Virus record (IMG/VR): IMGVR_UViG_3300026519_000001
Location: 30,262-94,261 of that record
DNA length: 64,000 nt
DNA from: a virus
Strand: one strand, 5' to 3'
Of this stretch, positions 44,022 to 51,343 are shown one piece after another. Position 1 is the stretch's first letter. The number at the start of each line of letters is the position of its first letter. Under the pieces are notes generated by a model. It made no database searches. It saw only the letters and a program-made list of their open reading frames with translations, and was not told the origin of the DNA. The position numbers were made by a program, and so were the translations under genes.

Positions 44022-44035
44022 TCTTATTTATTTTG

Positions 44036-44109
44036 TAGCGAGACCAGGATTTGAACCTGGGTCTTCAGCTTATGAGACTGACGAGTTAACCATCTTCTAC
44101 TATCTCGCT
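44036..44109 (-). tRNA. tRNA-Met (CAT), initiator-like body
   Basis: Acceptor AGCGAGA/TCTCGCT, anticodon arm TCAGT-CTCATAA-GCTGA, T arm CCAGG-TTCAAAT-CCTGG. Confidence 0.85.
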
Positions 44110-44118
44110 ATTTTATCG

Positions 44119-44201
44119 TGTCCTTGGCAGGGTTTGAACCTGCAAACTTTAAAAGCACTAGATTCTAAATTTAGCATGTGTACCGATTCCATCACAAAGA
44201 C
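44119..44201 (-). tRNA. tRNA-Leu (TAG)
   Basis: Acceptor GTCTTTG/CAAGGAC, loop TTTAGAA, long variable arm, T arm GCAGG-TTCAAAC-CCTGC, A73. Confidence 0.8.
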
Positions 44202-44475
44202 ATTACTATTTTTATTAAGTTTCACTTTCTATTGGCTTGTTTAATATTTCTTTAAGACCTTCTTCAATATCCTTATAGGTTATATTATTATAAAACTTGT
44301 TATTCATACTATGTAAAGATTCAGCCTCTTCAACTAGAGCCTTAGCCTTATTTATCCTAATCCTTATCTCTTTATTATTCATACTGCAAGTATAATATTA
44401 TAATATATAAAAAACAAGTGATAACGTATATTTATTTCTAATTATAAAATAAATAGAAAATAAATTGACAAATCA

Positions 44476-44506
44476 TTGCATTTGTGAAAATTAAAGTGTA
44501 GCTTTG
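44476..44506 (+). promoter_or_regulatory. Bacteroidota sigma promoter (TTG-N20-TAGCTTTG)
   Basis: -33 and -7 elements at canonical spacing, at the strand switch upstream of a structured element and the tRNAs. Confidence 0.55.
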
Positions 44507-44659
44507 AGCACAAAGTCGTAGACTAATGACAAACCTACCCCAATAATGTGGTGGCTTCCTCTTGGAATCTCGTCATAGATTAATTAAACTTTACCAAGAT
44601 AAGGAGTAACTATTATTTGGGTTGCCCCCTTTGTAGGCATATTTAAAAGCTAAAATAAC

Positions 44660-44764
44660 ATGAAAAAAAAGAAAAATAATAAAGTAAAAAAGGTAAGAAT
44701 AATACAAAGCAAGATTGAAAATAAAATTATACGAAAAAAAACATTAAAAAAAAGAACTAAATAA
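44660..44764 (+). CDS. Tiny very basic peptide (34 aa, MKKKKNNKVKKVRII...)
   Basis: ATG with A-rich leader; Lys/Arg-rich. Could be a chance ORF in A-rich DNA. Confidence 0.3.
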   Translation: MKKKKNNKVKKVRIIQSKIENKIIRKKTLKKRTK

Positions 44765-44884
44765 TTAGGAATTAACAGAATAAAATATTAATATTGCACA
44801 ATGATTAAAATATACCAACATAATACACCTGAACATAGCCCTGCGAATAGCAAGGATGACTTTATGTGTGGGTGATGTTTTACC

Positions 44885-44941
44885 ATTATTCATAAAAAAA
44901 TCCTTTCTAGATTGAATAGAAAGGATTTTTTTATGAATAAT
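44885..44941. repeat. Perfect 25-bp inverted repeat with 7-nt loop (bidirectional terminator or cruciform)
   Basis: ATTATTCATAAAAAAATCCTTTCTA-gattgaa-TAGAAAGGATTTTTTTATGAATAAT. Confidence 0.85.
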
Positions 44942-44943
44942 AT

Positions 44944-45017
44944 CTAGGTACGATCCATTGGTGTGGTTGCCTCACTTGGAATGAGGATTATTAAAGGTTC
45001 GAATCCTTTTACTTAGA
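44944..45017 (+). tRNA. tRNA-Pro (TGG)
   Basis: CTAGGTA/TACTTAG, CCTCA-CTTGGAA-TGAGG, AAAGG-TTCGAAT-CCTTT. Confidence 0.8.
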
Positions 45018-45023
45018 CTAAAT

Positions 45024-45095
45024 GTTCCCATCGTCTAATGGTTAGGACGTTAGCTTTTCAAGCTAAAGATCAGAGTTCAATCCTCTGTGGGAATA
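45024..45095 (+). tRNA. tRNA-Glu (TTC)
   Basis: GTTCCCA/TGGGAAT, TTAGC-TTTTCAA-GCTAA, CAGAG-TTCAATC-CTCTG. Confidence 0.88.
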
Positions 45096-45101
45096 CTATA
45101 A

Positions 45102-45174
45102 TGAGGAATAGCACAACTGGTAGTGCATCAGATTTTGATTCTGAAGATTGTAAGTTCGAATCTTGCTTCCTCAT
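45102..45174 (+). tRNA. tRNA-Gln (TTG)
   Basis: TGAGGAA/TTCCTCA, TCAGA-TTTTGAT-TCTGA, GTAAG-TTCGAAT-CTTGC. Confidence 0.88.
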
Positions 45175-45180
45175 CACATC

Positions 45181-45251
45181 CCTCCTATAGTTCAATGGTA
45201 GAATATCTGCTTGTGATGCAGAAGATGTGGATTCGAATTCCACTAGGTTGA
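45181..45251 (+). tRNA. tRNA-His (GTG), atypical or possibly pseudo
   Basis: Good D, anticodon (TCTGC-TTGTGAT-GCAGA) and T arms. Acceptor CCTCCTA/TAGGTTG has two mismatches; A73 and no G-1. Confidence 0.65.
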
Positions 45252-45259
45252 CATTGAAA

Positions 45260-49822: not shown

Positions 49823-50329
49823 ATGAACATTGTAGAAAAATCTAAAAAATATGCATGTGAATCCCATGCCAATACTAATCATTATTATGATTTTGATAAG
49901 CCATATAGTACACATTTAAATATGGTATATAATATAGCTAAACACTTTATATCGTTAGTTAATGATGAAGACCAAGATAATGTATTGGCAGCTTGTTGGA
50001 CACACGATATTATTGAAGATGCAAGACAAACATATGATGATGTTTTAAAAAATACTAATAAAACAATAGCTGATATTACTTATGCTCTTACTAATGAAAA
50101 AGGTAAGAATAGAAAAGAAAGAGCTAATAATAAATATTTTGAAGGCATTAGAAATATACCAAATTCTTCTTTTGTTAAATTGTGTGATAGAATAGCTAAT
50201 GTTACTTATTCTAAAAAAAATAAATCACCAATGTTTATTAAATATAAAAAAGAAAATAGTATATTTGTAAAGTCTATAGATCAATTTGGATTAAAACCAA
50301 TGATACAATATTTAGATGACATTAGTTAA
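49823..50329 (+). CDS. HD-domain small alarmone hydrolase-like protein (RelA/SpoT hydrolase / Mesh1 family)
   Basis: A...H, PY..HL, AA..HDIIED, ALT and VKL.DRI.N motifs in the correct order. Confidence 0.8.
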   Translation: MNIVEKSKKYACESHANTNHYYDFDKPYSTHLNMVYNIAKHFISLVNDEDQDNVLAACWTHDIIEDARQTYDDVLKNTNKTIADITYALTNEKGKNRKERANNKYFEGIRNIPNSSFVKLCDRIANVTYSKKNKSPMFIKYKKENSIFVKSIDQFGLKPMIQYLDDIS

Positions 50330-50336
50330 TAAATAT

Positions 50337-50686
50337 GGGGCTGACTGATATTGACAGGATGATATTGATAATATATGCAAGCACGTGATGATATGAGACA
50401 CGTATGAAACGTATCAACTTAATAATTAACAAGAATGAAAATTCTGCTGAAGACATACAAGGTATGGAATCAGCTTTAGCTGAAGCTAAAGTAATCTTAA
50501 TGACTCCTGTAAAGGAAGAAAGAATGCTAATTGCAGCTTAATCGTTTAATTGTATTTGATAAAGGTTTATTAATTCCTTAAAAATTAAATAATGCGAATA
50601 TATAATTAGTAATAATTATTAAAAGCTTGTAATATCATATATTATTTATACATAGCTGGACCAGAGTTTGATTCTCTGCAGCTCCA
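50337..50686 (+). ncRNA. ssrA: tmRNA
   Basis: 5' GGGGCTGA; 3' T arm CAGAG-TTTGATT-CTCTG; acceptor CAGCTCC-A with G3:U70; pk1 (ACGTG/CACGT, TGATATG/CGTATCA); tag ORF 50428-50541 ending LIAA-stop. Confidence 0.88.
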
Positions 50687-50770
50687 CTTAACCAAATATG
50701 GTACTCAGTCTGTAAAAGGGTAGCTGAGTTACTATATTTGAATTTTATATTTAAATTAAACAAAAGTAAA

Positions 50771-51343
50771 ATGAAAAAAATATTAATTTTAATAACTTTA
50801 ATAGGATTTGTGAGTTGTAATTCATTTAAAGTTGATCCAATTACAGCATACATAATTGATGAAGGTCAACATAATTCATATTCATATAATTTTAATAATA
50901 AACGTAAAAAAAATCCTATTGCACCTATTTTAATACGTGGTAATAGATTAGAATTTAATTTTATGTTTACATCTCAACATATTTACAATTATAATATTAA
51001 AGATGGTGATGATATTAATAAATTATATGGGATAACATCTACTAAGATACATCAAAATTCAGCACGTTTTGGGTGGAGGTATATTGGCAATAATAAGTTT
51101 GAAATATTTGCATATTATTATGTAAAAGGAATTAGAGATTGGTATAGTCTATTAATAGTTAAAATTAACGAAACTGTTAAATATTCTATTGATGTAAGTA
51201 ATAAACAATATACTTTTGGTGCTAATAATAATTGGCATCATGTATATAATACAAAAAATATAATGGCATTTAGATCATATCCTTGGTTTGGTGGCAATAA
51301 TACTGCACCACATAAAATGATATTTAAAATAATAGAATTATAG
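50771..51343 (+). CDS. Lipoprotein with beta-sandwich (lectin/ConA-like) character
   Basis: MKKILILITLIGFVS-C lipobox; DINKLYG, H.NSARFGWR and YPWFGG motifs; TATATTTG at 50733. Confidence 0.6.
   Translation: MKKILILITLIGFVSCNSFKVDPITAYIIDEGQHNSYSYNFNNKRKKNPIAPILIRGNRLEFNFMFTSQHIYNYNIKDGDDINKLYGITSTKIHQNSARFGWRYIGNNKFEIFAYYYVKGIRDWYSLLIVKINETVKYSIDVSNKQYTFGANNNWHHVYNTKNIMAFRSYPWFGGNNTAPHKMIFKIIEL

Follow-up and report, generated by a model that had tools for sequence, protein, structure and literature searches.

A transfer-messenger RNA gene with a long, probably selected tag in the genome of a crAss-like phage

Introduction

The tags that transfer-messenger RNA (tmRNA) adds to proteins are textbook short degrons. 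Can the tag of a phage-borne tmRNA be something more? The question is raised by a locus in a 64,000-nucleotide (nt) stretch of viral DNA, here called the window, which covers bases 30262-94261 of the 94,261-bp IMG/VR virus record IMGVR_UViG_3300026519_000001; all positions are those of the window. The initial annotation, made from the sequence alone, placed a one-piece tmRNA at this locus. It described an intact tRNA-like domain (TLD) with a G3:U70 pair, an intact first pseudoknot (PK1), and a frame of 37 codons that begins 11 nt past PK1 at an unusual AAC resume codon, contains a tag-like GMESALAEA and ends in a degron-like IAA. The region after the stop was short and AT-rich, so that PK2-PK4 appeared reduced, and an in-frame ATG at 50404 offered a 45-residue peptide as another product.

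From the comparisons described here, we consider it likely that a crAss-like phage has a working one-piece tmRNA gene at this locus and that the long tag is under selection. What appears to be new is an ordinary phage-borne tmRNA chassis with a long selected tag, a resume codon that does not begin with G, and a shortened pseudoknot domain. The features are listed in Table 1.

The tmRNA gene and its relatives

We aligned a 601-nt segment around the locus (50200-50800) to the Rfam tmRNA model RF00023 in E-value mode. The alignment ran from end to end of the model (50337-50689 against model positions 1-374; 36.4 bits, E = 5.1e-13, or E = 1.9e-14 over the whole phage genome), and all the features of the initial annotation were found in the sequence. 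Posterior probabilities were high for the 5′ acceptor strand, both strands of helix 2, PK1, the spacer, the first tag codons, the T arm and the 3′ acceptor strand, and poor between the first tag codons and the 3′ strand of helix 2. The minimum free energy (MFE) of the RNA has a z-score of -4.4, and none of 100 shuffles folded as well. In the TLD, an acceptor stem of 7 bp that includes G3:U70 stands with a T arm, and there is no anticodon arm. Its discriminator A at 50686 is followed by CUU; CCA is not encoded and must therefore come post-transcriptionally.

Nucleotide searches found little that was related. Exact DNA patterns of the tmRNA ends had no match in IMG/VR viral contigs, and among 50,697 GenBank phage records there was no match to the window tmRNA by blastn or to its 37-residue tag by tblastn at E up to 1. 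The tag was productive in protein searches, because gene callers had predicted small open reading frames (ORFs) over the homologous region in metagenomes. A homologue search with the 45-residue ORF returned P0002 and P0003. A profile search of 1.84 billion representative proteins then gave nine matches at E ≤ 0.001; seven short ones were kept, and P0006 (1167 residues) and P0011 (358 residues) were left out as long multi-stretch matches. Thirteen proteins, one of them from the window itself, came from a second profile search; P0014, with a tag identical to that of P0005, was left out of the alignment. Scans of viral and metagenome contigs with the peptide profile of the first alignment gave nothing, and the wider alignment gave one locus in each. 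Both loci came from back-translated scans. L015 is on a 1,533-bp metagenome contig. L016 lies within a 20,439-bp IMG/VR contig with phage genes, encoding a nicotinamide phosphoribosyltransferase, a ribose-phosphate pyrophosphokinase, helicases and a Sak4-like protein; this record has no large terminase (TerL) match and is estimated to be 13% complete. Together with 11 metagenomic members (P0002-P0005, P0007-P0010, P0012, P0013 and P0015), the window, L015 and L016 make up a family of 14 tags.

RF00023 matches both L015 (64.6 bits) and L016 (71.5 bits) at full length and above its gathering score of 47 bits, and ARAGORN calls both. The gene in the window, though itself below threshold, therefore has genuine tmRNAs as homologues. 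In the same GenBank records, blastn with the L016 tmRNA gave no match, and the L015 tmRNA matched only over 26-30 nt of the T arm and acceptor, in 10 Bacillus phage tRNA-Ala sequences and the tmRNA of the crAss-like phage cr52_1.

The window, L015 and L016 are the three DNA sequences behind all statements on covariation and on the ratio of nonsynonymous to synonymous change (dN/dS); they are 58-69% identical over aligned columns. Their acceptor stems read GGGGCUG, GGGGGAU and GGGCCCG; these were taken by eye from the sequences, since MAFFT shifts L015 by one position. In all three the 3′ strand matches, with changes on both sides at positions 4-7 in L015 and L016 around a constant G3:U70. The T stem contains two compensatory pairs. 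Both stems of PK1 are fully paired, with three compensatory pair changes: C-G to A-U in stem 1 of L015, and two pairs of stem 2 changed on both sides in L016. The Rfam alignment and these changes agree with the annotation of G3:U70 and PK1 as intact.

The resume codon

In E. coli, as described in PMC2481249, an 11-nt spacer separates PK1 from the coding part, U85 and A86 at positions -5 and -4 set the frame, and A86 is nearly invariant. The window has an 11-nt spacer too, as annotated, and then AAC at 50428, with the conserved A at -4. The UA at -5/-4 recurs in L015 (UAAUU, then GAC), in L016 (UAAAC, then GCA) and in the Cellulophaga phage phi14:2, to which we return below. The Rfam consensus resume codon aligns to AAC in the window, GAC in L015 and GCA in L016, and ARAGORN begins the L015 tag at the homologous codon (DKFNN...ELAA, 32 residues).

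The first residue of the 14 family tags is A in seven, N in three, D in two and G in two; in the 11 metagenomic ORFs it was assigned solely by aligning peptides. PMC1168896 lists A, G and D among tmRNA resume residues, and AAC is one transition away from GAC. Because this position holds GCA or GAC in relatives, or G, A or D as judged from aligned peptides, we read AAC as the true resume codon and as a derived state common to the window, P0002 and P0003. The choice of AAC in the initial annotation thus agrees with the spacing from PK1, the U(-5)A(-4) motif, the Rfam alignment and the ARAGORN start in L015.

The long tag and its family

From AAC, the tag (50428-50538) translates to NKNENSAEDIQGMESALAEAKVILMTPVKEERMLIAA, 37 codons ending in IAA and followed by TAA. 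The homologous frame is open for 32 codons in L015 and 38 in L016, and the other two frames have several stops each in all three DNAs. In 20,000 composition-matched mononucleotide shuffles, a frame that long stayed open in 2.0% of cases for the window and in 5.2% and 6.0% for L015 and L016, percentages that are not independent because the sequences are homologous.

Substitutions point to selection on the peptide. Nei-Gojobori counts over the whole tag gave proportions of synonymous differences (pS) of 0.58-0.65 against 0.26-0.32 for nonsynonymous differences (pN) in the three pairs, with dN/dS of 0.275, 0.348 and 0.222. The 17-codon core, EDIQGMESALAEAKVIL, has pS of 0.46-0.70 against pN of 0.12-0.16, and 10 of its codons, EDxQGMESxL, have pS of 0.47-0.67 against pN of 0.04-0.12. 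A core Leu is retained despite a change from TTA to CTT, and all 14 tags share M13, L17, A20 and I23. With the same frame open in two diverged relatives and under purifying selection, the 37-codon tag of the initial annotation stands, and its internal GMESALAEA lies inside the core in which pS exceeds pN. We conclude that the additional tag peptide is probably made and selected.

The family supports this picture. Its tags are 32-40 residues long, differ in C-terminal length by whole codons, and share a core, xEDxxGM[DE]SxLAEAKxI (xEDxxGMDSxLAEAKVIx, 17-20 residues). The degron-like end that had been seen in the window is general, with AA at the C terminus in 14/14 members. The window's tag fits in length, core and C-terminal AA; its identity is 81-84% with the tags of P0002 and P0003 and 38-61% with the remaining 11. 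Amino-acid exchanges among the 14 tags are conservative (V/I, D/E, A/V/T). Upstream of the tag, the residues "II" and "MRH" in the metagenomic ORFs would correspond to the RNA motifs UAAUU of the spacer and AUGAGACAC of PK1, a match that would place these ORFs inside tmRNA genes. In a bacterial and archaeal genome collection (one genome per species), a narrow peptide pattern matched 32 stretches, none of which was confirmed, and a single, narrow PK1 DNA pattern had no match. In these searches the family was seen only in phage and metagenome DNA, and the two scans are weak evidence that bacterial genomes lack it.

The 3′ domain and the role of the message

The 3′ domain is short across the family: the stop codon and the 3′ strand of helix 2 are 83 nt apart in the window, 72 in L015 and 75 in L016. 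In E. coli, where PMC1168896 gives stop codons at 120-125 and closure of helix 2d near U308, the corresponding stretch is roughly 180 nt. The longer message nevertheless brings the whole gene (350 nt up to the discriminator) close to the usual tmRNA size. In the three sequences, most positions of PK2-PK4 are deleted from the Rfam alignment or poorly placed in it. Folded one at a time, the 3′ domains form two or three small hairpins, and RNAalifold on all three found no meaningful consensus structure (-0.78 kcal/mol). The initial annotation was right about a short AT-rich region after the stop; the proposed reduction of PK2-PK4 holds in length, and in structure three sequences yield no consensus fold.

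A short 3′ domain raises the possibility that the tmRNA works but the long frame is kept for its RNA structure, replacing the missing pseudoknots around the head of the 30S subunit, with only the Ala-Ala end selected as peptide. The length of the gene fits this idea, since it comes close to the 363 nt given for E. coli in PMC1168896 despite having only 83 nt after the stop. So do two hairpins that lie within the core. One, at 50454-50466 (+ strand, C[A/G]UAC-AAG-GUAUG), is in the tag frame and is kept in 3/3 DNAs with an A-U to G-U change. The three DNAs do not differ at any nucleotide of a 12-nt stretch, ACAAGGTATGGA, and this invariance and the kept hairpin suggest an RNA-level constraint added to that on the peptide. 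The other hairpin (50473-50492) resembles helix 5 and is where Rfam puts the consensus stop-codon hairpin, with low posterior probability; L015 and L016 preserve only part of its pairing, which argues against a structural role. Furthermore, pS in the core is 3-10 times pN, with synonymous changes inside the hairpin-forming codons, the Leu is kept through multi-base changes, and replacements across the 14 peptides are of the conservative kind described above. Structure as the main reason for the long frame is thus improbable, and selection on the peptide accounts better for these changes.

Normal initiation offers another way to translate the same codons. An ordinary small gene overlapping a tmRNA-like RNA could start at the ATG at 50404, which opens an in-frame ORF of 45 residues, or at the internal Met13 ATG at 50464 (25 residues), and ORFs are indeed predicted over the homologous region in 13 metagenomic contigs. 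However, the frame is closed in L016 by a stop three codons ahead of the resume codon and in L015 by one nine codons upstream with no ATG between, and the upstream parts of the metagenomic ORFs vary in register and length. Since the upstream start is not conserved, the 45-residue ORF is an accident of this genome, and the peptide that had been suggested from ATG 50404 has to be given up. Met13 is invariant in 14/14 tags and is preceded by AAGG, yet this motif lies 1 nt from the ATG. A Shine-Dalgarno sequence 1 nt from a start codon is too close. Residues before Met13 are under purifying selection as well, and we regard an ordinary small gene as very unlikely.

A start far downstream, with a tag of ordinary length, was named in the initial annotation as a finding that would speak against the long tag. 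ARAGORN points that way in two cases: in L016 it gives AEAKIIALNDTVGVEPARLAA, 21 residues beginning AEAK, and in phi14:2 only the last 11 residues. Yet the UA motif just upstream fixes where translation resumes, close behind PK1 (as described for E. coli in PMC2481249), all three RNAs have this layout at the long-frame start, and ARAGORN itself uses the long-frame start in L015. The 10 codons upstream of the L016 ARAGORN start are those of EDxQGMESxL, with the pS and pN given above. Selection on these codons implies that they are translated too and that the L016 tag is an under-call. The evidence favors the long-frame start, and we give a downstream start hardly any weight. Nor is it credible that the RNA is mainly a decoy whose TLD titrates host SmpB while the message goes unused, as proposed for the TLD-only RNA of mycobacteriophage DS6A: a TLD-only phage tmRNA that inhibits host tmRNA has been described (PMC4131195, PMC11915505) and this phage has no SmpB of its own, but this RNA retains PK1, the frame-setting motif, an open frame with its stop codon, and the Ala-Ala end, and the frame is under peptide-level selection.

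Several points weigh against a functional tmRNA gene with a selected long tag. The check by ARAGORN or RF00023 proposed with the initial annotation gave a split result: RF00023 aligns at full length, but its 36.4 bits for the window fall below the gathering score, and ARAGORN makes no tmRNA call on the window. Run at gathering scores, Rfam reports six tRNAs in the window and misses the tmRNA. AAC (Asn) is missing from the resume codons listed by Burks et al. 2005 (PMC1168896). With three DNAs and small counts, covariation is support, not proof; synonymous sites are near saturation, even if all three pairs point in the same direction. Part of the core lies within the two hairpins, so RNA constraints act too. 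Finally, no partner for the core was found: the best match of the peptide profile against the PDB had an E of 0.7, which is not meaningful, and searches of the phage genome gave no SmpB or ClpP match.

Comparison with known tmRNAs

The window tmRNA resembles the one-piece type of E. coli in its TLD with G3:U70, helix 2, PK1, 11-nt spacer with UA at -5/-4, Ala-Ala end followed by a stop, and similar overall length. It differs in its 37-codon tag, its AAC resume codon, the lack of a stop in the helix-5-like loop, the 83 nt in place of three pseudoknots, the CCA that is not encoded, and its place in a phage genome with no SmpB. For comparison, the E. coli tag is quoted as ANDENYALAA in PMC2481249, and 10 residues is the most frequent tag length in the 97,179-sequence tmRNA database of PMC11915505.

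Two crAss-like phages carry tmRNAs of other kinds. The cultured phage phi14:2 (Steigviridae; NC_021806.1, 4031-4502) has a one-piece tmRNA that scores 46 bits with RF00023, just under the cut-off. The locus is unannotated; the RefSeq record has only removed "hypothetical protein" features there. Rfam places the resume codon at GGA behind UAAAC, opening a 38-codon frame that ends in MVA, of which ARAGORN reports an 11-residue tag. In being one-piece, in its long frame and in its score, this tmRNA is like that of the window; it is unlike it in having another tag without the GMDSxLAEAK core, another PK1, a 472-nt gene and a large 3′ domain. In cr52_1 (Suoliviridae; NC_055888.1, 81171-81551), the gene annotated by RefSeq as "transfer-messenger RNA, SsrA" has the permuted two-piece form, with an ARAGORN tag of 14 residues, GNTSYVTDYTRLVA, and 41.3 bits with RF04321, below the cut-off; beyond being a tmRNA in a Crassvirales genome, it is unlike the window's gene in its permuted form and its tag. 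The comparison of tags among Crassvirales that the initial annotation called for is thus divided: phi14:2 has a long frame, cr52_1 a short tag, and neither has the tag of the window. In the five GenBank Crassvirales nearest by TerL, there was no full-length RF00023 match (0/5), only hits of 17-80 nt at 11-18 bits.

The closest precedent for length is bacterial. The tag of Mycoplasma pneumoniae, an organism without ClpXP, is 27 residues long, described in PMC8403727 as unusually long, and its length is reported to be tied in vitro to recognition by another protease, Lon. That tmRNA is alike in having a tag far above the usual length and unlike in being a bacterial chromosomal gene; the window tag is 10 residues longer, and no sequence relation was detected. 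Phage tmRNAs have been described for the Bxz1 group of mycobacteriophages, Bacillus phage G and, as a TLD only, DS6A (PMC4131195), for huge phages (PMC7162821) and for Cellulophaga phage Calle (PMC8776804). These likewise are phage-borne ssrA genes; we compared them by description, and the descriptions consulted do not mention long conserved tags. In the literature covered, phage tmRNAs are known and no long conserved phage tags are described, although supplementary tables (PMC11915505, with its screen of RefSeq viruses; PMC8776804, SI file 7) may list them.

A degenerate T-loop/acceptor pattern was also run against viral contigs; it matched nine stretches, none of them related (permuted tmRNAs, TLD-sized fragments and a group II intron). 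The intron is domain RF02001 at L007 543-715 (- strand; 119.6 bits) on an IMG/VR provirus contig, a chance match to the T-loop pattern. Three stretches on viral contigs, L012 (G002:C1:25688-25759), L013 (G001:C1:13466-13583) and L014 (G003:C1:27255-27372), are RF00023 matches of 72-118 nt that join model ends 1-374 at 20-28 bits. These TLD-sized elements may be mini-tmRNAs reduced to the TLD, as in DS6A, or remnants of attachment sites.

Possible function of the long tag

If the RNA acts as established tmRNA biology would predict, host tRNA-processing enzymes would cut it from its transcript, CCA would be added, and host alanyl-tRNA synthetase would charge it with alanine through G3:U70. SmpB and EF-Tu of the host would deliver it to ribosomes stalled on broken mRNAs; we propose host SmpB because the search of the phage genome gave no match to this protein. 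Reading would restart at AAC 50428 and run for 37 codons to TAA, so that rescued proteins would gain Ala plus 37 residues ending in IAA. The Ala-Ala end would presumably serve as the usual degron for host AAA+ proteases, and the core may offer a second site of recognition to an adaptor, protease or phage factor, an idea made reasonable by the long-tag precedent of Mycoplasma. The phage would then set the fate of unfinished proteins while recycling ribosomes.

More broadly, one could imagine a phage-only tmRNA lineage, in crAss-like and other phages, whose tag is now a functional peptide of 35-40 residues with a core that recruits a specific partner. We put this forward tentatively and think it less probable than not. 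A tag 3-4 times the usual length, with a selected core, diverged relatives and no match in the bacterial genomes scanned, would point to a second function specified by the phage, such as an extra recognition element or another fate for tagged proteins. If true, the phage and not the host would decide the fate of every protein freed from stalled ribosomes during infection. There is also a practical consequence. ARAGORN and the Rfam gathering score both miss the window gene, and ARAGORN under-calls the tags of relatives, including phi14:2; such genes are probably under-counted in phage catalogs.

Genome and neighboring genes

The 94,261-bp record has direct terminal repeats and a completeness rating of 100%. 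Large genes on its minus strand match crAss-type PHROGs for the major head protein (E = 4.9e-120), portal (E = 1e-130) and large terminase (E = 6.5e-110), and its TerL is about 35-40% identical to those of Steigviridae (IAS virus, cr111_1, cr85_1 and crAss001). By these matches, the genome that bears the tmRNA is that of a complete crAss-like phage. No TerL relatives were found in IMG/VR viral contigs. G+C content varies from 21 to 38% along the window.

Table 1. Positions of the tmRNA gene, its parts and the upstream gene in the window
Feature	Positions	Strand	Basis or remark
HD-domain phosphohydrolase gene	49823-50329	+	phrog_990, E = 2.1e-25; ends 7 nt upstream of the tmRNA
One-piece tmRNA gene, G1 to discriminator A	50337-50686	+	RF00023 alignment
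Acceptor stem 5′ strand, GGGGCUG, including G3 of G3:U70	50337-50343	+	pairs with 50679-50685 (CAGCUCC)
Helix 2, 5′ strand	50355-50382	+	pairs with 50625-50658 in MFE fold and Rfam alignment
PK1, stems CGUG/CACG and UGAUAUG/CGUAUCA	50384-50416	+	Rfam alignment, high posterior probability
11-nt spacer ACUUAAUAAUU, U(-5) A(-4), ends UAAUU	50417-50427	+	same length as E. coli spacer
Tag frame from AAC, 37 codons in total, stop TAA 50539-50541	50428-50541	+	only open frame; homologous peptides in 13 other sequences
Conserved 17-codon core	50449-50499	+	pS against pN in three pairs (see text)
Helix-5-like hairpin in tag frame, loop UGAA, no in-frame stop	50473-50492	+	MFE fold
Short AT-rich 3′ domain where PK2-PK4 normally stand	50542-50624	+	83 nt
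Helix 2, 3′ strand	50625-50658	+	MFE fold, Rfam alignment
T arm (CAGAG-UUUGAUU-CUCUG) and acceptor 3′ strand	50662-50685	+	T arm 50662-50678

The gene just upstream of the tmRNA encodes an HD-domain protein, which Pfam HD_4 matches at 19.5 bits, under its cut-off of 27.2. A first-stage reading had joined the two genes in a translation-rescue module. The tmRNA neighbors in L015 and L016 are unrelated to it, there is no synteny between the window and either locus, and no conserved module was seen. The HD protein has one relative in IMG/VR viral contigs, without a tmRNA. A scan for promoters and terminators was uninformative (10 promoter-like sites against 8.1 expected, 0 terminators).

Six tRNA genes (Met, Leu(UAG), Pro, Glu, Gln and His) stand at 44035-45252 on both strands. 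This cluster sits at the switch in GC skew between a minus-strand structural block and a plus-strand block of small genes. Directly downstream of the tmRNA, an ORF at 50771-51343 (+ strand), which matched nothing in PHROGs or Pfam and for which IMG/VR viral contigs gave no relative, begins with an N terminus, MKKILILITLIGFVSCNS, that resembles a lipoprotein signal peptide with a lipobox cysteine.

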